A stretch of 11,290 nt of DNA from an uncultured Methanosarcinales archaeon (GCA_964484835.1 CAZAFP010000010.1:1-11290); one strand, 5' to 3'. Shown: positions 197 through 10,601, numbered from the stretch's first letter. Numbers and translations are program-made. Notes: generated by a model from the letters alone, not told the origin.

Positions 197-1153
197 ATGT
201 TTTTCAGGAAGAAGTATGAAAAGGTTGTTTTGGATACTAGCGCGGTGATCCAGGGCGTTTTGTCTTTTCACAGGCCTAAGATAGGGGAAGTTGTTGTTCA
301 CGAGGCTGTTTTGTCTGAATTGGAAAATCAGGCTAATAAGGGCAGGGATCAGGGTTTTAAAGGATTGGCTGAATTGAAGAAGTTGAAAGATTTGTATAAA
401 GTAAGGTTTTCGGGTAAGCGTCCTAACGAGTTCGAGATTAAGTATGCTAAGAGTGGCGAGATTGATTCTATTATTAGGGATTTAGCTTTGGAAGAAAAGG
501 CTTTTTTGGTAACTGGCGATAAGGTTCAGGCTTCTATTGCTGAGTTGAAAGGTGTTAAGACTTTGTTTTATACGGTTCCTGATGTCTTGTTAGGTATTAA
601 GAAGTTTTTTAAGAAAGATAAGAGGTTGTTTTTTAAGAAGGATGGTGTTTTTTCTTTGAATAATGGTTCTTTGAAGAAAGTGTCTAATGAGGATTTTTAT
701 TATTTGTTGAAAGACGTGGTTAATTCCAAGTATTATTCTTTTTTTGATAATTATCGTGTTTCTTTTATCAGTGGTTTTGGTTTTTTAGTGGAGGATTTGA
801 GTATTAATGATGTTAGTGGTTATAATTTGTCTGATTTGACGCGTGTTAAGAGGGCTCGTTCTTTATTTTTGAAAGGAGATTCAGAGTTTTTTATGCATTC
901 CTTATTGGATTATCATAGGTCTAAAGGTCGTTTTGTTTGTTTGGTTGAGAATTTTAGTAGCCAGGAGCATTTCCCATCTTTAAGTGTTAAGGATGTTGTT
1001 TCGTTAAAGCCTTACCTAGTGGGTGTTTCTAGTTCTGAAGAAGATGTTATTTTTTTATTAAATCGAGGTTTTGCAGTTGTCAGTAGTGTTGGTGATAAGT
1101 CTTTATTTGATTATGTTTTGGATTTGGAAAGTAAGAAGTTGTATAAGAATTGA
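197..1153 (+). CDS. PIN-domain protein (PINc type, resembling the N-terminus of archaeal PIN-ATPase-KH proteins); the C-terminal ~190 aa are uncharacterised and have no P-loop
   Basis: ATG start, TGA stop, 318 aa. The N-terminal ~125 aa show the PIN acidic set in canonical contexts: D13 (VVLDTSAV), E41 (VLSELENQA), D90 (GEIDSIIRD) and D108 (LVTGDKVQA). No GxxxxGK[ST] motif occurs anywhere in the protein. A local duplication FFKKDKRL/FFKKDGVF lies at aa 137-152. Confidence 0.6.
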   Translation: MFFRKKYEKVVLDTSAVIQGVLSFHRPKIGEVVVHEAVLSELENQANKGRDQGFKGLAELKKLKDLYKVRFSGKRPNEFEIKYAKSGEIDSIIRDLALEEKAFLVTGDKVQASIAELKGVKTLFYTVPDVLLGIKKFFKKDKRLFFKKDGVFSLNNGSLKKVSNEDFYYLLKDVVNSKYYSFFDNYRVSFISGFGFLVEDLSINDVSGYNLSDLTRVKRARSLFLKGDSEFFMHSLLDYHRSKGRFVCLVENFSSQEHFPSLSVKDVVSLKPYLVGVSSSEEDVIFLLNRGFAVVSSVGDKSLFDYVLDLESKKLYKN

Positions 1154-1429: not shown

Positions 1430-1438
1430 AAAAAAAAA
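1430..1438 (-). terminator. Oligo-T tract (T9 on the minus strand) 2 nt after the TAA stop of the 485-aa gene
   Basis: The plus strand reads aaaaaaaaa at 1430-1438. On the minus strand this gives TAA-tc-TTTTTTTTT. Confidence 0.5.
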
Positions 1439-1440
1439 GA

Positions 1441-2898
1441 TTAATTTGTAATTCTTCCTTCAAAATCATTAACATGCACTAAGCCAAATCTGGCACTCCC
1501 CGTGTCTTCATTAGCCAGGTTTCCTTTAATTAAATAAGCATTATCAGGTATAACCCCATTATAATCTCTCTCGTATAATCTTAATAAGCCCTGAGCCCTG
1601 TTAGATATGACGTGCTCCTCACCATCTTCGTTAGTTAAAACTTGCTCATTCACATAGATTCTGTTATCCCTGGCTTCGAAGGAATCACCAGGCACGCCTC
1701 TGACTATCTTTATCCTAGTACCTGTAACGTGATCTAATGCTATTATATCCCCTTCACCAGGAGTGTTTTCTTTATAATAGCCTTCTATTAAAGTGGCTGT
1801 ACTCCCTTGACTCAGCACGCCTTGCATGGCATTTCTTTCCATAGTTACAGTTCTTGTGGAATATGCAGAAGTATCAACTTGTTGTAATTCAGCATCTTGT
1901 TCGTCTTCAGAAGGTTCTTCTTCAACTTCCTCTGATTCATCAACAGATTCTTCCTCTGATTCATCAACAGCCTCTTCTTCTGATTCTTCAGTTTCATCTA
2001 CTTCAGAATCGGTTTCTTCCTCTTCAACATCATCTGATTCTTCAGAAGGTTCTTCTTCTGTTTCGTTAACAGGATCGGATTCGTTGATAGGAACTGTGTC
2101 ATTAATCGTTTCGTTTCCAGAATGAGTTTCATTAACAGCAGTCTCATTATCTAATCCTACTAATACTGTTATGAAAAAATCATTACTTTCTAAAACACTA
2201 CCGTCTTTAGAAGCATAGACTTTATTTCTCCAAACACCTAAATCTTCTCCTGTTATTATTAACTCATTATTGATAATTTCATAACTGTAACCTTGACTAC
2301 TTCTAGCATCAAAATCAATATCTTCTCCTTCGAAGTAATCTGAAAGGTTATAAGATATGTTTTGTTCCAAGTTCACAGTTTTATTCTCTAAATCTTGGAC
2401 TAACTCTAAAGAAGAATCAGTTTCGTTAAAAGATTCGTTAACGTCACTTTCAACTTCTTGTTCATCTTCAAATTCCAAAACATAATAACTCAGACTTTCC
2501 AAGTCAAAAGTCAGGTTGCCTTCCAAAACGATACTTAATTCTGTAACATTAACTTCTTCTAAAGAACAAGTTTCTTCACATTCTTCATAAAACTCCACAG
2601 TTTCATTATCTAATTGAGAAGAAACTACTCTTAAAGGACCATCACTTGTAATAACATCAACCTCTAGAGTCCCGTTCCCATAAGCAAAACCTGTAAGTCT
2701 TAAAGATGAAACTCTCTCTCTTTCAAAATCTAACGAGGATGTTTCGTTAAAAGATTCGTTAACGTCGAAAGATTCTTCAACCTCGAAAGTACTGGTAACC
2801 ATACCTGTAACGAAGACTCCTGATACTATCAAATAGTATACACCATAAACAAATGCCGTCACTAAGACGGCTAATAAGAGAGAGTTTTTTCTATCCAT
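1441..2898 (-). CDS. Membrane-anchored, sequon-rich surface protein with a long acidic linker and a C-terminal S26 signal-peptidase-I-like domain (nucleophile position is Ala)
   Basis: 485 aa, ATG start, TAA stop. There is an N-terminal hydrophobic anchor (aa 7-33). I count 17 N-x-S/T sequons in aa 47-280 and none afterwards. An E/D/S-rich linker spans aa 279-337. The C-terminal ~135 aa align by eye to the bacterial SPase I boxes: box B NAMQGVL (expected SMxPTL), box C GDIIAL, box D RIKIVRGVPGD (expected KRxxGxPGD), and box E VIPDNAYLIKGNLANEDTGSARFGLV (expected VPxxxYFVMGDNRxxSxDSRxxGxV). Confidence 0.6.
   Translation of the reverse strand: MDRKNSLLLAVLVTAFVYGVYYLIVSGVFVTGMVTSTFEVEESFDVNESFNETSSLDFERERVSSLRLTGFAYGNGTLEVDVITSDGPLRVVSSQLDNETVEFYEECEETCSLEEVNVTELSIVLEGNLTFDLESLSYYVLEFEDEQEVESDVNESFNETDSSLELVQDLENKTVNLEQNISYNLSDYFEGEDIDFDARSSQGYSYEIINNELIITGEDLGVWRNKVYASKDGSVLESNDFFITVLVGLDNETAVNETHSGNETINDTVPINESDPVNETEEEPSEESDDVEEEETDSEVDETEESEEEAVDESEEESVDESEEVEEEPSEDEQDAELQQVDTSAYSTRTVTMERNAMQGVLSQGSTATLIEGYYKENTPGEGDIIALDHVTGTRIKIVRGVPGDSFEARDNRIYVNEQVLTNEDGEEHVISNRAQGLLRLYERDYNGVIPDNAYLIKGNLANEDTGSARFGLVHVNDFEGRITN
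1927..1974. repeat. Two tandem 24-bp units inside the acidic linker of the 485-aa gene
   Basis: ttcctctgattcatcaacag occurs at 1927-1946 and again at 1951-1970, a 24-bp period with 20 consecutive identical bases per unit. On the minus strand it encodes AVDESEEE/SVDESEEV. Confidence 0.85.
2420..2445. repeat. Copy 1 of a perfect 26-bp direct repeat (partner at 2741-2766)
   Basis: gtttcgttaaaagattcgttaacgtc is identical at both sites. The offset is 321 bp, exactly 107 codons. It encodes DVNESFNET at aa 152-160. Confidence 0.9.
2741..2766. repeat. Copy 2 of the perfect 26-bp direct repeat (partner at 2420-2445)
   Basis: Same 26-mer. It encodes DVNESFNET at aa 45-53. The flanking bases differ on both sides. 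Confidence 0.9.
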
Positions 2899-2905
2899 CC
2901 TTTAT

Positions 2906-3205
2906 TTATTTCTTTTTCTTGGTTGCTTTCTTAGCAGTGGACTTTTTAGCTGTGGATTTCTTACTACTTTTTTTCTTAGCAGATGTTGATTTCTTCACAG
3001 GCTTCTTTTTTGTTGATTTCTTAGCAGGCTTTTTCTCAGGCCCTTCCATACCTTTTTTTACTTCACCAGGAATATCTTCAATACCTTGCTTAAATTCTCT
3101 TATGCTTTCACCAGTATTCCTAGCTAAGCCAGGAGCTTTCCTACCTACAAAGTAAATTATAGCTATCAACACAAGCATCCCTATTATTTCCCATAAACCT
3201 ATCAT
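2906..3205 (-). CDS. tatA: Twin-arginine translocase subunit TatA/E family with an unusual lysine-rich C-terminal tail
   Basis: 99 aa. There is a single N-terminal TM helix (WEIIGMLVLIAIIYFV) followed by GRKAPGLARNTGESIREFKQG. This matches the TatA hinge and amphipathic-helix signature FG.kKlP.lar.lG..iReFK. An AGGAGG Shine-Dalgarno lies 9 nt upstream. Confidence 0.85.
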   Translation of the reverse strand: MIGLWEIIGMLVLIAIIYFVGRKAPGLARNTGESIREFKQGIEDIPGEVKKGMEGPEKKPAKKSTKKKPVKKSTSAKKKSSKKSTAKKSTAKKATKKKK

Positions 3206-3214
3206 TTTTTCATT

Positions 3215-3220
3215 CCTCCT
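3215..3220 (-). promoter_or_regulatory. Shine-Dalgarno (AGGAGG) for tatA
   Basis: The plus strand reads cctcct at 3215-3220, with 9 nt of spacing to the ATG at 3205-3203. Confidence 0.6.
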
Positions 3221-3262
3221 ATTAAAATTATTATATTTATGACATAATGTAAATATTCCCTT

Positions 3263-3976
3263 TTATATATTTTTTCCCTTCTTCCGTGTTAATTTAGCTA
3301 TCAAGACACCAAGTTCATAACTTCCATAAATAGGAATTATCATAAGGAACATGCTGAAAGGGTCAGGAGGGCTTAGTAAAGCACTTAGTATCATAACTAC
3401 AATGAAAACACCAACTCTATGTTCAGTAACATCTCTTATCGTTAAAAGTTCATATCTTACAAGCAGAGGTATTACTAAAGATATCTGCAATATAAATGCA
3501 AGGGTTAAAGCCATCATAATCATATATCTTAAAACACTAGTTATACCCCACATAGGCTCAACTAACAAGTAAGATGTTGAAAGCATTAAAAGTACAAATT
3601 TGGAAAAAACCAATACACCTACTAAGGCACCTATAATTCCTAACAGTAAGGAACTTATAGCTATAACGACTAATAATCCCCTGTGATGTTCAGTAATAAC
3701 AGGTCTCACATAACTGTATATCCCTGTAAATATAATAGGTATACCGAAAAATATACTTAAAGACGTGGCAATAGTAGCTCTTGCATATAAATTTTCAAAA
3801 GGATTTAAGGCCACTAATTGGTTAGGGTTTAAACCCATGTAATTTATTAGCCAATCCATTAAATATGAAGATGCCCAAAAAAATAAAGCAAATAACAGAA
3901 TAAGAGGTATAACGAGCCTTATGAATAATTTTTTAAGCTCCAACATATGCTCTCTAATAGTTTTTTCTTCATCCAT
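3263..3976 (-). CDS. tatC: Twin-arginine translocase subunit TatC
   Basis: 237 aa. The N-terminal motif is TIREHMLELKKLFIR (TatC signature xxEHLxELRxRL). About six hydrophobic segments are present. The C-terminal conserved region is LSPPDPFSMFLMIIPIYGSYELGVLIAK (TatC: tPpDvxsq..la.P...LYE). Confidence 0.9.
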   Translation of the reverse strand: MDEEKTIREHMLELKKLFIRLVIPLILLFALFFWASSYLMDWLINYMGLNPNQLVALNPFENLYARATIATSLSIFFGIPIIFTGIYSYVRPVITEHHRGLLVVIAISSLLLGIIGALVGVLVFSKFVLLMLSTSYLLVEPMWGITSVLRYMIMMALTLAFILQISLVIPLLVRYELLTIRDVTEHRVGVFIVVMILSALLSPPDPFSMFLMIIPIYGSYELGVLIAKLTRKKGKNI

Positions 3977-4003
3977 AAAACTCTCTCTTCAAGAAAAAAA
4001 GCA

Positions 4004-4135
4004 TTATTTTTTTTCCTTTTCCAATTTTTCCAACCTTTGTAACTCACTAATCAAAGGAGCAACTTCACTATAAGGTTGTTGGGCTAGATAATTTAATACT
4101 GCCTGTAATAATTCCTTACTTATTTTAAAACTCAT
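4004..4135 (-). CDS. Small hypothetical protein, 43 aa (not in the supplied ORF track)
   Basis: Hand translation gives MSFKISKELLQAVLNYLAQQPYSEVAPLISELQRLEKLEKEKK with a TAA stop at 4004-4006. A GGGTGG Shine-Dalgarno-like element lies 7 nt upstream of the ATG (4135-4133). The ORF is same-strand and ends 27 bp upstream of tatC. It is predicted to be helical. No family was recognised. Confidence 0.3.
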   Translation of the reverse strand: MSFKISKELLQAVLNYLAQQPYSEVAPLISELQRLEKLEKEKK

Positions 4136-4142
4136 AATTCAA

Positions 4143-4148
4143 CCACCC
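4143..4148 (-). promoter_or_regulatory. Shine-Dalgarno-like GGGTGG for the 43-aa ORF
   Basis: The plus strand reads ccaccc at 4143-4148, with 7 nt of spacing to the ATG. A TATA-like TTATATAAAT (minus strand, 4186-4195) lies further upstream. Confidence 0.35.
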
Positions 4149-4199
4149 TTTAAATATTTGTTATTGACGTAGATAACTACACGTAATTTATATAACTTT

Positions 4200-4949
4200 T
4201 TAAGTTAAATCCCCTATATACCCTATTATTGTTTCAGTACCATTATTGTAAATGCCATAGTCCGAGTTATGTCCTTCTATCACTTCAAAATTTTGAATGT
4301 TTTGCTGATTCATATCCAAATCTTGACTGGCACCCGTGTAAGGAACGAAGTCATCATCTACATTTATCGTGACAGTTCTTCCACTCTCACTCGTTGTTAC
4401 ACTATTCCCTCCTGAAATTGTCACTATATCACTATCACCTACTGTGCTACTGCCACTATCCCCTGCTATGGTAAAAGAAGACATGTCTCCACTCTCCCCT
4501 ACTTGACTTTCTACAAAGTCTTTCGTAGCAGCATCTGATCCACTTATAGGAGTAGGAAGACCTGTTACTGTGTTGCCGTCCATGTCAATACTTCCATCCA
4601 TGGTCCCCCCGCTTAATTGCAAGTATAGGTTATCAAACCAAGATTGATCTACATTAATAGTTCCTGAAGTTGTTATAGGCCCCCCTGTTAAACCCGCTCC
4701 TGTATCAACTTCTGTTACGGATCCGTCACCACTTTCCTCTACTTGAGCGTCTACGTAGCTCTTTGTAGCTGCTTGGCTTCCTTGAGTAGGAGTTGGCAGT
4801 AATAATTGTCCTGTGAAGTTATAAATACCACTTATAGTATCTCCACCCCTAAGTATATATAAAGAGTCGTGGCCAGGATTATTCTGGGCGAGTGCGAACG
4901 GAATTAAAAATAAAACCGCTATTGTTATGAAGATTAATTTTTTATTCAT
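4200..4949 (-). CDS. Secreted protein with phage-tail-fibre-like repeats (LSGGTMxG..M..N.v..L..P....DAatK.fV motif), putative adhesin
   Basis: The track ORF 4200..4958 begins at a TTG. The first ATG is at 4949 (MNKKLIFITIAVLFLIPFALA|QNN) and gives a Sec-type signal peptide with an A-x-A cleavage site. Numbered from the TTG, two ~50-aa repeats lie at aa 33-80 and 111-160. A third partial copy lies around aa 205-224. The protein is rich in G, S, T and D. Confidence 0.6.
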   Translation of the reverse strand: MNKKLIFITIAVLFLIPFALAQNNPGHDSLYILRGGDTISGIYNFTGQLLLPTPTQGSQAATKSYVDAQVEESGDGSVTEVDTGAGLTGGPITTSGTINVDQSWFDNLYLQLSGGTMDGSIDMDGNTVTGLPTPISGSDAATKDFVESQVGESGDMSSFTIAGDSGSSTVGDSDIVTISGGNSVTTSESGRTVTINVDDDFVPYTGASQDLDMNQQNIQNFEVIEGHNSDYGIYNNGTETIIGYIGDLT

Positions 4950-4979
4950 TTTTATCAATAATGATATTTGCGGCTTACA

Positions 4980-4987
4980 TATATAAA
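4980..4987 (-). promoter_or_regulatory. Putative TATA box (TTTATATA on the minus strand) for the tail-fibre-like gene
   Basis: The plus strand reads tatataaa at 4980-4987. This is 22-29 bp upstream of the TTG at 4958 and 31-38 bp upstream of the ATG at 4949. Confidence 0.4.
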
Positions 4988-5069: not shown

Positions 5070-6347
5070 ATGCAAGATATAAATTTAGTAAGGGAAAATC
5101 CCGAGGTAATAAAAAAAGATTTGGAGAAAAGAAAAGATACAGAAAGAATTAAACTCGTTGATGAAGTTAAGAGTTTGGATGAGAAATGGAGAAAGCTGAA
5201 ATATGAAGAAGATCAGCTTAGGAGTAAGAGAAATAAATTAAGTAAACAAGTCAGCCAATACAAAAAAGAAGGTAAAGACGCTGCTAAAATTTTAGAGGAA
5301 GTTAAGAAGATACCTAACGAGATTAAAAAGTCTGAAGGAGAGAGGAAAGAATTAGAGCAAAAAATTACAGAAGGTCTTTATAATTTACCCAATATAACTG
5401 TAGATTCCGTGCCTTATGGTAAGGACGATTCTGAAAATGTGGAAATAAAAAATCATGGTGAGAAGAAGAAAAAAAATTTTGAGTTAAAACCCCACCAAGA
5501 AATCGCAGAAAACCTAGGAGTGGCAGATTTTGAAAGAAGCACTAAGCTTTCAGGTAGTGGTTTTTATATTCTTAAAGGAGACTTGGCCTTGCTGAATCAG
5601 GCTTTAATAAGATTTGCAATAGATCATATGATAAATAAGGGTTTTGAATATACAGAAGTTCCTTATATGATGAATAAAGATGCTTACCAGACAGGAGTTT
5701 CCATGGAAGATTTTGAAGACGTAATGTATAAAATAGATGGGGAAGACAAGTATCTAATTGCAACTTCCGAACATCCTTTGCTTGGCCAGTTCATTGGTGA
5801 AAAAATAGAGGAGGAAGAACTGCCTATTAAGTTAACTAGCTATTCTATGTGCTTTAGAAAGGAAGTTGGAAGCCATGGTATTGACACGAAAGGCTTGTTT
5901 AGGACTCATCAGTTTAACAAGGTTGAGATGGCTGTTTTATCTAAGCCAGAGGATAGTTGGGAAATACACGAAGAACTTCAGAAAAACGCTGAGGAAGTAA
6001 TGCAAAAATTAGAATTGCCTTACAGGGTTGTTAATATATGCACTGGAGACCTCGGGGATTTAGCCGCTAAAAAATATGATATCGAGGCTTGGATGCCCAG
6101 AGGGGAAGAGTATAGGGAAGTAGGCAGTAATAGTAACTTTACTGATTACCACGCTAGGAGAGCTAATATAAAGTATCATAAAAAGAAAACTAATGAGTTT
6201 CCATACGTGCACACCCTGAATAATACAGTAATAGCAACTAGTAGGATAATGGTGGCTATTCTCGAGAATTATCAGAATGAAGACGGTAGCGTTACGGTTC
6301 CAGAGGTTTTGAGGCCGTACATGTTTGGTAAGGAGATTATGAAATGA
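5070..6347 (+). CDS. serS: Seryl-tRNA synthetase (bacterial-type class II aaRS)
   Basis: 425 aa. The N-terminus MQDINLVRENPEVIKKDLEKR is followed by a long coiled-coil arm. Motif 2 is FRKEVGSHGIDTKGLFRTHQFNKVE. The motif 3 region is TLNNTVIATSRIMVAILENYQNEDGSVTVPEVLRPYM. Confidence 0.97.
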   Translation: MQDINLVRENPEVIKKDLEKRKDTERIKLVDEVKSLDEKWRKLKYEEDQLRSKRNKLSKQVSQYKKEGKDAAKILEEVKKIPNEIKKSEGERKELEQKITEGLYNLPNITVDSVPYGKDDSENVEIKNHGEKKKKNFELKPHQEIAENLGVADFERSTKLSGSGFYILKGDLALLNQALIRFAIDHMINKGFEYTEVPYMMNKDAYQTGVSMEDFEDVMYKIDGEDKYLIATSEHPLLGQFIGEKIEEEELPIKLTSYSMCFRKEVGSHGIDTKGLFRTHQFNKVEMAVLSKPEDSWEIHEELQKNAEEVMQKLELPYRVVNICTGDLGDLAAKKYDIEAWMPRGEEYREVGSNSNFTDYHARRANIKYHKKKTNEFPYVHTLNNTVIATSRIMVAILENYQNEDGSVTVPEVLRPYMFGKEIMK

Positions 6348-6616
6348 ATGGAATTGTTTACATAATAATAGGAATAATAGTGACCTTCGCCAGTAATTGG
6401 GTTTTGAATAATGTCGAGACTCCAGGAATGAATTTTTTTTACTACGGAGGTATTTTATTAATAGCCACAGGCGTAGCTAAATTAGCTTTTAATTATGTTA
6501 AAAAAGAAGAAAAGGATGAAAAAAATATAATAAGATGTGAAAAATGTGGGGTTAAACATTACGAAATAAGTAATTACTGTCATATTTGCGGTGCTAAACT
6601 CAAGAAAAATATATAA
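6344..6616 (+). CDS. Small membrane protein with a C-terminal zinc ribbon
   Basis: 90 aa. Two hydrophobic helices are present (IVYIIIGIIVTFASNWVL and FYYGGILLIATGVAKLAF). They are followed by CEKCGVKHYEISNYCHICGAKL (CxxC-x12-CxxC). The start overlaps the serS stop in an ATGA arrangement. Confidence 0.6.
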   Translation: MNGIVYIIIGIIVTFASNWVLNNVETPGMNFFYYGGILLIATGVAKLAFNYVKKEEKDEKNIIRCEKCGVKHYEISNYCHICGAKLKKNI

Positions 6617-9219: not shown

Positions 9220-9840
9220 ATGAATATTGTAATAACAGGACCCCAGGGTTGTGGTAAAGGAACACAGGCAAGTTTGATAAGCAATGAAAAAGGAATAAAA
9301 CACGTCTCGATGGGTGATGTTTTAAGAGACGTTGTTAAGAACAAAGGGGAGAATCATGAGTTGATTCGTGATGCTATGAAGAAAGGAGATTTGATTCCTG
9401 ATGAGATAAATAATAAAGCAGTTAAGAAAGTGCTTGATGAAAACCCTGGAGGTGTTATTCTAGACGGTTATCCTAGGAATACTAATCAAGCAGATTATTT
9501 GATAAAAAATACTAAGATTGATCTTGTACTGGTTCTTGATATAAGTGATGAAGAAGCTATTGAGAGAATCGGTAAGAGGAGGATATGCACCGCCACTAAT
9601 AAGATTTACATCGCGGATAAAATAACTCAGAAAGATATTGATGAATGTGAAAAAGCAGGCGGCGAGATAATAACAAGGGAGGATGATCAGCCTGAAAGTG
9701 TTAAGAAAAGGCTTGACATTTATCATAAGAAGACAACGCCTGTCTTGGACATATTCAGAGAGAAAGGTATTAATGTTCAAGTTATACCTGCAGAAGGTTC
9801 AATTGATGAGGTTTTTGAGAAGATAAAGAAATTACTATGA
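9220..9840 (+). CDS. adk: Adenylate kinase (long, bacterial-like form with a lid domain)
   Basis: 206 aa. The P-loop is ITGPQGCGKGTQ. The NMP-binding region is MGDVLRD and the core shows ILDGYPRN. The lid is RRICTATNKIY...CEKAGGEIITREDD, where only 2 of the 4 usual Zn-ligand positions are Cys. Confidence 0.95.
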   Translation: MNIVITGPQGCGKGTQASLISNEKGIKHVSMGDVLRDVVKNKGENHELIRDAMKKGDLIPDEINNKAVKKVLDENPGGVILDGYPRNTNQADYLIKNTKIDLVLVLDISDEEAIERIGKRRICTATNKIYIADKITQKDIDECEKAGGEIITREDDQPESVKKRLDIYHKKTTPVLDIFREKGINVQVIPAEGSIDEVFEKIKKLL

Positions 9841-10601
9841 TATATGCAGATGTGCATGCTCACTTGGATTTTCCAGAGTATGAGAATGACTTGAAAGAAG
9901 TTATTAAGAGAGCGTCAGATAAAGGGGTTAAGAGAATAGTTGCCAACGGAGTTAATCCGGGGAGTAATGAAAAAGTATTGGGGATAAGTAAAAATTATGG
10001 CGTTGTAAAACCAGCTCTTGGTTTTTATCCTACTGACGTTCTTGATTATTCTGAAGAGGTTATAAATAAAGAATTGGAAAGAATAAGGAAAAACAAAGAA
10101 GTGGTTGCTTATGGAGAAGTTGGTTTGGATTACAAATACTTACCTGAGAAAAATCAAGACGAAGCTAAGAAGAGACAAAAAATGGTTTTTCAAAAATTTA
10201 TAGAACTTAGCGAGAAAACTAAGATGCCTCTTATTATACATTCTAGAAAGGCCGAAAAGGACGTTCTTGAAATGTTAGAATCTTCTTCTTTGAAGAATCC
10301 AATTCTGCATAGTTTTATGGCTAAGAAGAAATTAGTTGAAAGAGCAAGTGATAACGGTTATTATCTTAGTGTTTTGCCTATTGTTAATAAATTACAACAA
10401 GTGCGTGATCTTGTTAGTTATACTCCTTTTAAACAATTGCTGACCGAAACAGACAGTCCTTATATGAGTCCTGAAGGCGGGAGGAATGAGCCTTGCAATG
10501 TTAGTTTCTGCGTTGACGAGATTGCTAAGATAAAAGAACTGGAAAAAGTTGAGGCGGCTAATAATCTTTATATGAATTATCGTAAAGCGTTTAATGATTA
10601 A
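9837..10601 (+). CDS. TatD-family metal-dependent hydrolase/DNase
   Basis: 254 aa. The N-terminal DVHAHLDF is the HxH metal motif. Also present are GEVGLDY, PLIIHSR and ETDSPYM, which are typical TatD/amidohydrolase-fold motifs. An ATGA overlap joins it to the adk stop. Confidence 0.9.
   Translation: MIYADVHAHLDFPEYENDLKEVIKRASDKGVKRIVANGVNPGSNEKVLGISKNYGVVKPALGFYPTDVLDYSEEVINKELERIRKNKEVVAYGEVGLDYKYLPEKNQDEAKKRQKMVFQKFIELSEKTKMPLIIHSRKAEKDVLEMLESSSLKNPILHSFMAKKKLVERASDNGYYLSVLPIVNKLQQVRDLVSYTPFKQLLTETDSPYMSPEGGRNEPCNVSFCVDEIAKIKELEKVEAANNLYMNYRKAFND

Follow-up and report, generated by a model that had tools for sequence, protein, structure and literature searches.

A conserved gene cluster of Woesearchaeota combining a divergent TatAC translocase with fibre-like proteins and a predicted pseudo-signal-peptidase

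Introduction

Minimal twin-arginine translocation (Tat) systems of the TatAC type, with a dedicated cargo encoded next to the translocase, are well established, phoD-tatAd-tatCd of Bacillus subtilis being an example. The twin-arginine (RR) motif of the signal peptide and the acidic pocket of TatC are treated as defining, nearly invariant features of Tat. Here we analyze a cluster of five genes on the minus strand (4958→1441) of an 11,290-nucleotide stretch of DNA (CAZAFP010000010.1:1-11290 of assembly GCA_964484835.1, labelled as an uncultured Methanosarcinales archaeon; hereafter, the window). In this cluster, tatC and tatA stand between the genes for a fibre-like secreted protein and a small conserved protein, on one side, and the gene for a stalked protein with a C-terminal domain of the signal peptidase family S26, on the other side. 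Comparison with related loci indicates that the cluster is conserved, that the TatC of this clade is predicted to have lost the contacts for the second arginine, and that the S26 domain appears to be catalytically dead.

In the 2026 cryo-electron microscopy structure of Escherichia coli TatBC with a signal peptide, the first arginine is water-linked to E15 and stacks under F94, the second arginine forms a salt bridge with E103 and packs on Y100, and the consensus phenylalanine occupies a pocket composed of F94, L9, H12 and L13 (PMC13323110). In the same study, the E103A substitution abolishes substrate binding and serves as the binding-negative control. Huang and Palmer (2017) have shown that hydrophobic signal peptides suppress the defects of F94 and E103 mutants, and that twin-lysine signals of the Sec pathway can use Tat (PMC5539426). 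It follows from this suppression and from twin-lysine export that the RR motif and its pocket are not mechanistically essential, and therefore, by analogy, a natural TatC of this kind could plausibly function in translocation while recognizing another type of signal.

The cluster analyzed here resembles phoD-tatAd-tatCd in having one TatC, one or two TatA and no separate TatB, in the clustering of genes for exported proteins and, in two relatives, in a gene adjoining the tat genes whose product carries a Tat-type signal. It differs in that the clade TatC lacks E103 and Y100, that the candidate signals are of the RK, KK and KN types rather than RR, that a pseudo-peptidase and surface proteins of the fibre-like kind take the place of a cofactor or phosphate enzyme as partners, and that the host is archaeal. 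For the S26 domain, the closest described counterpart is SipA/LepA of Streptococcus pyogenes, an inactive signal peptidase homologue with an intact peptide cleft that is essential for pilus polymerization (PMC4049620). The initial annotation of the window reported no match to a described system, in agreement with our full-text search of the literature for Tat in Woesearchaeota or DPANN archaea and for tail fibres with Tat, which yielded nothing describing this arrangement.

Results

Conservation of the gene cluster

Calling of open reading frames (ORFs) placed five genes on the minus strand: the fibre-like secreted protein (4200–4958; 252 amino acids (aa) from a TTG start), the small conserved protein (4004–4135; 43 aa), tatC (3263–3976; 237 aa), tatA (2906–3205; 99 aa) and the stalked pseudo-signal-peptidase (1441–2898; 485 aa). 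The gaps between them are 64, 27, 57 and 7 nt, and both the gaps and the coordinates of the five packed same-strand genes are exactly those given in the initial annotation. We hold this anatomy of the module, that is, its gene content and arrangement, with at least very high confidence.

Full-length homologues of the S26-like protein are very rare: a word-indexed search returned 3 among 5.8 billion clusters, and an exhaustive profile search produced 7 matches below 1e-30, among which five were full-length, including the window protein, and one was a short 280-aa form. One source names these homologues Candidatus Woesearchaeota. A profile scan of genome contigs for further members recovered only the contig of locus L001 again, and two scans of metagenome contigs, with the S26-like and the TatC alignments, gave no matches; because these scans added no new members, the module family appears to be rare.

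The gene contexts of the relatives, all of them uncultured, were obtained by exact-protein look-ups that cover 2–21 kb per locus. The order fibre / small protein / TatC / TatA (one or two copies) / S26-like was found in L001, L005, L007 and L009–L011, and L012, which is cut within tatA, shows TatA / S26-like; altogether, the same module is present in six distinct lineages of related Woesearchaeota contigs. Two tatA copies each are encoded in L001, L005 and L012. The spacing from tatA to the S26-like gene is 3–9 nt in all six lineages, which lends weight to the earlier statement that these two genes are almost certainly co-transcribed.

The flanks of the module fall into at least three different contexts. 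In the window, serS lies upstream and a PIN ATPase gene downstream, and in L007, SecDF lies upstream and, again, a PIN ATPase gene downstream. L001 and L005 carry a helix-turn-helix (HTH) gene and a giant fibre protein gene upstream and a conserved block of secreted unknowns downstream; L012, cut upstream, has the same downstream block. In L009, a pair of genes for 118-aa and 252-aa proteins lies upstream and a UPF0182 gene downstream. Shared flanks would therefore not account for the conservation of the module. The initial annotation had called for a check of the synteny of tatC, tatA and the S26-like gene across relatives, its proposal to be abandoned if the order was conserved in none; the order is kept in the related loci despite their differing flanks, and that ground for abandoning the proposal therefore falls away.

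As a separate observation, the block of secreted or membrane proteins (about 75, 214, 378, 162, 589 and 1297 aa) located 3′ of the S26-like gene occurs in four loci (L001:11571–19857, L005:11331–16711, L012:2017–9022 and L002:1578–2477) and is not found in the window. These proteins show only weak Pfam matches (DUF4320, Big_9, Ig-like).

Identity of TatC and TatA and the second-arginine site

The window TatC is a full-length domain of six transmembrane (TM) segments that matches PF00902 over profile positions 1–208 of 208 (2.4e-30; 106.4 bits, cut-off 25.1) and aligns end to end with the E. coli and Aquifex TatC structures in alignments with Protein Data Bank (PDB) entries. The clade is divergent, its nearest outgroups being 24–29% identical, and the window protein scores under the NCBIfam equivalog cut-offs for both bacterial (TIGR00945, 88.2 against 132.7) and archaeal TatC (TIGR01912, 55.8 against 192.6).

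We compared individual columns between 8 clade TatCs and 115 others, a comparison sample biased to the best profile matches, in HMMER and MAFFT alignments that were anchored on the flanking proline and arginine, with no gaps between. The E. coli TatC sequence used in these column counts agrees with the PDB alignment over residues 7–242. Relative to E. coli, the window TatC has H10 for H12, E13 for E15, Y89 for F94, I94 for L99, T95 for Y100 (codon 3692–3694) and H98 for E103 (codon 3683–3685). The column of E103, which is glutamate in 115/115 of the others, holds asparagine in six clade members and histidine in two. Similarly, the Y100 position is tyrosine in 113 of the 115 and serine, threonine, valine or alanine in all eight clade members, and the L99 position, leucine in 115/115, is isoleucine or valine in seven of the eight. 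At the F94 position, the clade has tyrosine throughout (8/8), and the others have phenylalanine in 109 cases and tyrosine in 6. H12 is kept in 8/8 clade members and present in 114/114 of the others, and E15 is glutamate in six clade members and glutamine in two. Judged by these columns, the clade TatC is predicted to have lost the contacts for the second arginine and to have kept those for the first arginine and the consensus phenylalanine (H12; E15 in six of eight; F94 replaced by tyrosine). In this respect, the clade would be a natural version of the laboratory state of the E. coli Tat suppressors (PMC5539426), with the difference that the latter are engineered mutants of a canonical system, whereas the present substitutions have become fixed in a naturally occurring lineage known from sequence.

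These substitutions bear on the explanation that this is an ordinary housekeeping Tat system, with RR cargos encoded elsewhere in the genome and neighbours that merely reflect the inherited gene order of close relatives. The 10–20 kb covered in each genome leave room for such cargos, all loci belong to one narrow clade, with none found outside it, and one locus, L006, has the module without the S26-like gene. However, a housekeeping system would not be expected to lack the second-arginine residues in 8/8 clade TatCs where E103 is invariant in 115/115 others; the module persists while both flanks change, at a TatC identity of only 54–64% to the window copy; and the 3–9 nt junction between tatA and the S26-like gene recurs in every lineage. 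We therefore regard this explanation as unlikely.

The window TatA passes PF02416 narrowly (23.9 bits, cut-off 21) and falls under the cut-off of the NCBIfam TatA/E models. It consists of a TM helix, an FVGRKAP hinge, an amphipathic helix and a lysine-rich tail (23 lysines or arginines in the last 49 aa), and the segment MIGLWEII...YFVGRKAPGLARNTGESIREFKQG is kept in all relatives, according to an alignment of the orthologues by eye. A lysine-rich tail of roughly 20–50 aa is found in every TatA encoded directly 5′ of the S26-like gene and in the L006 copy; the extra upstream TatA copies (57–58 aa; L001, L005, L012) are without it. By the evidence of their domains, TatC and TatA are thus assigned to a minimal TatAC-type translocase. 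A pairing of the lysine-rich tail with the acidic linker of the stalked protein was considered and rejected: in L009, the 280-aa form of that protein (P0018) has no linker and the TatA tail is kept, and, furthermore, the membrane is predicted to separate the two. The AAG/AAA run that encodes the tail gives rise to a spurious antisense 'RR' ORF at 2853–3155 on the plus strand.

Signal peptides and candidate cargo

No RR signal was detected in any ORF of the window, L001, L005, L006, L007, L009 or L012, which for the window agrees with the initial annotation. The further step taken there, from the lack of RR signals to a cargo located elsewhere, does not hold: because the clade TatC lacks the second-arginine residues E103 and Y100, the absence of RR is uninformative on cargo, and three relatives encode a fibre-like protein with a Tat-like signal.

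This protein family, the only one recovered by the motif scan, is present in L001, L005 and L007 and carries a strongly conserved RK-type signal in which about 20 residues are followed by (N/T/S)-R-K-K-F-L-(Q/K)-LGxxAxxxPLLSPSVAA, with the cleavage position before (K/Q)FF. The signal corresponds to the Tat consensus Z-R-R-x-F-L-K with lysine in place of the second arginine and with an AxA site after a mild hydrophobic region (h-region). The hydropathy of this h-region, rich in alanine, glycine, serine and proline, is 1.7 compared to 2.4–2.9 in the cluster fibres (the comparison also included E. coli reference signals). Against TIGR01409 (TAT_signal_seq), the signal scores 12.4 bits, with a cut-off of 16.7, and the protein has a sub-threshold match to a 'Tat system-associated protein' family. 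The RKKFL protein (minus strand; L001:5657–7231, L005:..6467, L007:1–261; 524 to more than 2700 aa) is itself tail-fibre-like, with a BppL_N match (8.2e-7) and shaft repeats in common with the window fibre (BLASTP, 2e-4). In all three loci, its gene is preceded by a gene for a 65–66-aa HTH protein of the LuxR/GerE type; this gene pair adjoins the module divergently in L001 (186 bp) and L005, and in L001 the RKKFL gene is followed by one for a 921-aa Laminin_G_3 lectin protein.

Among the candidate signals of the module and its relatives are RKKFLQILGLSAAA..., MDRKNSLLL... and MNKKLIFI.... The N-terminal region (n-region) of the S26-like proteins is unusually conserved, with the pattern (D/E/N)-(K/R)-N-x-hydrophobic-hydrophobic, and is followed by a TM-like h-region of 25 residues with a hydropathy of about 2.2. 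This K/R-N n-region fits the register of the Tat motif, and five of the six cluster fibres start with K-K or K-H; we consider these observations suggestive only, given that n-regions like these are also found in Sec signals. In the five pairs available, the n-region motif of the S26-like protein showed no pattern of covariation with TatC residue 103 (histidine or asparagine). A type IV pilin (class III) signal at the N-terminus of the S26-like protein was rejected by eye, no K/R-G cleavage motif being present.

A paralogue of 252 aa encoded at L009:398–1156 (plus strand) has the signal FKRKQTFLL...VLTGLVTA, with cleavage before QQ, and its n-region places K-Q-T-F-L-L in the same register. Its signal and first beta domain, with a C..TC motif, are those of the S26-like proteins (BLASTP, 1e-6), and it ends in a domain that is also found in the neighbouring 118-aa protein, which is without a signal peptide. 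Since the C-terminus of this paralogue is unrelated, the N-terminal module of the S26-like protein appears to be portable.

The fibre-like protein and the 43-aa protein

For the window fibre, an ATG at 4949 (MNKK..., giving 249 aa) is a likelier start than the TTG because the L005 orthologue starts likewise. The protein has a hydrophobic, KK-type signal peptide (MNKKLIFITIAVLFLIPFALA, cleavage before QNNPGH), a shaft with 'AATKxYVD / LSGGTM' repeats, and N- and C-terminal modules that are conserved among the clade copies. Orthologues of 175–330 aa occupy the same position in L001, L005, L006, L007 and L009. Pfam and NCBIfam searches with the 252-aa protein gave no match; in PHROGs, it matches phrog_26630, a tail fibre family (3.8e-6), and in tblastn searches, annotated phage tail fibres (2e-6 to 1e-3). 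The tail-fibre-like label of the initial annotation is borne out to the extent of these matches, which are weak and confined to the repeat level, and we use 'fibre-like' in this sense.

The L001 fibre (L001:7602–8594) contains a near-exact internal tandem duplication of approximately 80 aa, and the linker of P0002, the S26-like protein of the same locus (L001:10001–11500), contains about three copies of 'VVGLPVDED.V.DDVF.LDQEVEEEIVEE'. In view of these repeats and of the range of lengths, 175–330 aa for the fibre and 280–575 aa for the S26-like protein, shaft and linker lengths appear to evolve fast through gain and loss of repeats.

The 43-aa ORF has orthologues of 45–53 aa in L001, L005, L006, L007 and L009 that share ...ELLQAxLNYLAxQPYSxVxxLIxELQRL..., and its gene always lies between the fibre gene and tatC. 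In the five related loci for which a translation was made, the copies are closely similar, which identifies it as a real gene. The protein has no match in Pfam, NCBIfam, PHROGs or phage genomes and is without a signal peptide or TM segment, and is therefore presumably cytoplasmic. Read by eye, its sequence looks like a helical hairpin. Given its position, its conservation and the lack of a signal peptide, it may act as a chaperone for the fibres.

The phage-like repeats also raise the possibility that the cluster is a remnant of a DPANN virus or mobile element, with a viral fibre and with Tat and S26 as viral auxiliary genes. The repeats are indeed common to these fibres and phage tail fibres, the adjacent fibre protein has a BppL_N match, and a small HTH regulator gene lies beside the fibre genes in L001, L005 and L007. 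However, none of the loci contains a gene for a capsid protein, terminase, portal or integrase, the flanks are of the housekeeping type (serS, ribosomal proteins, SecDF), two matches of 50 residues were all that the fibre retrieved from IMG/VR, no phage sequence matched the small protein, and the edges of the cluster are not marked by a break in base composition. On this evidence, a viral origin of the cluster seems extremely improbable.

The stalked S26-like protein

The 485-aa protein comprises a conserved signal or anchor (aa 1–36; MDRKN..., ending in ...TGMVTS before T), two beta-sandwich domains (aa 37–250; pLDDT of the AlphaFold2 (AF2) model, that is, its predicted local distance difference test, 70–85), a 95-residue acidic linker (aa 251–345) with 45 aspartates or glutamates and 0 lysines or arginines, and the S26 head (aa 346–485). 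The full-length AF2 model, built from 3 sequences, has a pLDDT of 50, with the S26 part unusable, and Foldseek searches with it returned generic beta-sandwich, carbohydrate-binding module and immunoglobulin folds at TM-scores below 0.2; the stalk domains are therefore described here only as beta-sandwiches. The search profile matches repeats in giant proteins rich in Big_2, PKD and He_PIG domains, and no Pfam domain is assigned to the stalk in the window protein. The protein contains 17 N-x-S/T sequons, compared to 5.6 ± 2.1 expected (0 of 2000 shuffles reach 17), and all of them are in aa 47–278, none in the S26 head. This distribution indicates that the stalk is probably extracellular and N-glycosylated, and makes the glycosylated tether proposed in the initial annotation plausible.

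The S26 domain (aa 349–483) passes the cut-offs of PF10502 (35.2 bits, cut-off 22.9) and, just, of TIGR02227 (47.9, cut-off 47), in accord with the earlier assignment. The head without nucleophile (1444–1863, minus strand) was characterized by phmmer against SpsB of Staphylococcus aureus, an AF2 model and Foldseek. In the phmmer alignment, Ala357 (codon 1828–1830) takes the position of the SpsB nucleophile serine (E. coli S90 / SpsB S36). For the catalytic columns, we set 8 clade members against the short S26 proteins that came closest in the exhaustive search, 134 in number. At the nucleophile position, the clade has A, E, S, E, T, D, D, A, compared to serine in 127 of 129 nearest active relatives. 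The general-base lysine of box D (window Lys397, 1708–1710) is kept in seven of eight clade members and in 133/134 relatives. The Ser278 equivalent is aspartate in six of eight (window Asp465) and serine or threonine in 121/134 relatives; that of Asp280 is glycine in 8/8 (window Gly467) and aspartate in 131/134. Accordingly, box E in the window reads GNLANEDTGSARFG, compared to GDNRxxSxDSR. The nearest S26 relatives are proteins of about 180–240 aa with serine and lysine intact.

At the same time, the head is the best-conserved region of the protein, with a mean pairwise identity of 53% compared to 23–39% in the stalk. Taken together, these patterns identify the head as a predicted catalytically dead pseudo-peptidase that is apparently maintained by selection. 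The initial annotation had suggested that the peptidase is unable to cleave, and this suggestion is borne out by Ala357 in the window and by the loss of the nucleophile family-wide.

The strong purifying selection on the head could also be taken as a sign of activity, the head being either specialized in removing signal peptides from Tat cargo or a domain that processes itself, with another nucleophile or a water/lysine mechanism. Retention of the lysine in seven of eight members, the serine and the threonine at the nucleophile position in one member each, and the signal-peptidase cut-offs passed in both Pfam and NCBIfam point in this direction. However, the nucleophile column is alanine, glutamate or aspartate in six of eight members and varies freely beside fixed neighbours, other residues stand in for Ser278 and Asp280 in most or all members, the domain lies away from the membrane, and SipA demonstrates that the fold can be essential without catalysis (PMC4049620). 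We consider an active head to be very unlikely.

Modelled with a deeper alignment, the head reaches an AF2 pLDDT of 93.1. In Foldseek, it matches SpsB with an E-value of 8.5e-8, and the best TM-score is with SipA (4n31; 0.70/0.74, root-mean-square deviation 3.3 Å). Like SipA, it has the S26 fold without the catalytic serine, and its gene belongs to a small cluster that also encodes surface-fibre proteins. However, SipA lacks both serine and lysine and sits directly on its membrane anchor, whereas the head described here retains the lysine and is separated from its anchor by some 310 residues of beta-domains and acidic linker; the partner machinery here is Tat, and the sequence identity is only 14–15%. 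No sortase or pilin was found in any module locus. Compared to the bacterial type I signal peptidases LepB and SpsB (S26A), the fold and boxes B–E are recognizable, but the nucleophile serine is absent, the equivalents of Ser278 and Asp280 are replaced, and the domain, which in that family comes directly after the membrane anchor and lies at the membrane surface, is here C-terminal, distant from the membrane and genetically welded to tatA. Two active relatives, P0028 and P0019, have no tat genes nearby, the former being in a bacterial context (DnaB, RecR, GrpE-DnaK-DnaJ); judging from these two, the only ones checked, linkage to Tat seems to be specific to the dead clade.

The architecture of the protein also fits a simpler scheme, in which it is plain Tat (or Sec) cargo or an adhesin, the dead head having been exapted to bind a ligand on the surface of a host or partner, and the cluster being a dedicated translocase with its cargo. 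The conserved K/R-N n-region together with a long signal that ends in a small-residue site at −3/−1 (...TGLVVA, cleavage before T), the reuse of the same signal and first domain on an unrelated C-terminus in L009, and the location of the head at the far end of a stalk of approximately 310 residues and 17 sequons, as is typical of adhesin tips, would all be expected under this scheme. A dedicated TatAC beside its cargo is, moreover, the known pattern of PhoD and TatAdCd in B. subtilis. Nevertheless, the KN motif has yet to be demonstrated to act as a Tat signal, the S26-like protein has a TM-like h-region, and the scheme leaves the constant fibre gene and the small signal-less protein among the neighbours unexplained. 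It overlaps the explanation that we favour, discussed below, rather than opposing it, and on its own we consider it rather unlikely.

Sequence context of the cluster

A possible archaeal TATA box, TTTATATA, read by eye at 4980–4987 (minus strand), approximately 35 nt 5′ of the ATG at 4949, could be the promoter of the cluster. Similarly, a run of nine T (1430–1438, minus strand; read by eye), two bases past the stop codon of the S26-like gene, could be an archaeal oligo-T terminator that closes it. The window is AT-rich (GC 0.29–0.40), and the GC skew is negative over most of the cluster region, which fits minus-strand coding.

According to Pfam and NCBIfam, the flanks in the window are archaeal housekeeping genes, namely those for serS, an XPD/Rad3 helicase, adenylate kinase, a TatD-family DNase and a PINA-type PIN protein. 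A tRNA-Ser(gct) gene lies at the contig end (32–117, minus strand). The PIN-domain protein (197–1153, plus strand; 318 aa) matches only the N-terminal 150–160 residues of PINA/PRK13764-type ATPases; its L007 counterpart has 392 aa and is likewise convergent with the cluster. The serS stop codon is overlapped by 4 nt by a gene (6344–6616, plus strand) whose 90-aa product has two TM segments and, at its C-terminus, a zinc ribbon; this gene is probably co-transcribed with serS. The TatD-family DNase gene (9837–10601, plus strand; PF01026, 5.8e-64) is located 5 kb from tatAC. A role of TatD in Tat export was rejected, given that TatD belongs to a DNase family; the proximity is probably a coincidence, and the name could mislead.

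Discussion

The explanation that we favour is that the five genes constitute one conserved cell-surface module of a Woesearchaeota (DPANN) lineage. Under this model, the clade TatAC would no longer need twin arginines and would read signals of the RK, KK/KH or K/R-N types, exporting fibre-type proteins that have folded, and perhaps trimerized, in the cytoplasm. Phage relatives of these fibres fold in this way. The 43-aa protein may be the cytoplasmic chaperone of the fibres, and a cytoplasmic helper for a secreted protein makes sense only if folding precedes export. By analogy with SipA, the dead head would bind peptides extracellularly, without cleaving them, and would hold the exported fibres, or help to assemble them, on a stalk that is long, acidic and glycosylated. 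The model of the initial annotation, in which the head would capture cargo at the end of a tether, gains an analogy in SipA. It may also be that the stalked protein is itself a substrate of the clade Tat, given that its N-terminus fits the register of the Tat motif; its role, whether holder or cargo, is one that we infer. We consider this combined picture tentative, with a little less than an even chance of being correct.

Several observations weigh against it. Five of the eight clade TatCs have a glutamate two residues before the E103 position, which might partly compensate for the loss. With its strong hydrophobicity, the signal of the cluster fibre resembles that of an ordinary Sec substrate, and Sec signals often have KK n-regions; likewise, the K/R-N motif of the S26-like protein comes from only 6–8 related sequences in an N/K-rich proteome. 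The RKKFL gene was not found in the window, in a contig too short to tell whether its genome has the gene, nor in L006 or L009, and in L007 it is about 7 kb away from the module. Canonical RR cargos may be encoded elsewhere in these genomes. In L006, the fibre, the small protein, TatC and TatA are kept and other genes occupy the place of the S26-like gene, so that the head is dispensable at least there. Finally, the head starts at approximately aa 346, about 310 residues from the membrane anchor, and because of this distance fits poorly as a gripper of signal peptides that are embedded in the membrane.

A more specific version of the model would make this clade a natural RR-independent Tat system, in which the TatC pocket, with E103 replaced by asparagine or histidine and Y100 by a small residue, has co-evolved with RK, KK and KN signals on fibre adhesins that fold in the cytoplasm, and in which a co-transcribed dead peptidase on a glycosylated stalk takes over the fibre uncut. 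Such a system would represent an undescribed appendage route in DPANN archaea. We consider this version doubtful, although possible.

Laboratory suppressors have shown that the pocket is not mechanistically essential, and we found no description in the literature of a natural lineage that has abandoned it. If the present interpretation is correct, this clade would be such a natural case, with RKKFL, KN and KK as the candidate signals, and the co-evolution of receptor and signal could be tested by residue swaps. It would also connect Tat with a pseudo-enzyme whose ancestor is the protease that normally completes export, an association for which the closest parallel is the streptococcal SipA. 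DPANN archaea depend on contact with host cells, and a dedicated export module for tail-fibre-like proteins would be a plausible part of their host-contact machinery.

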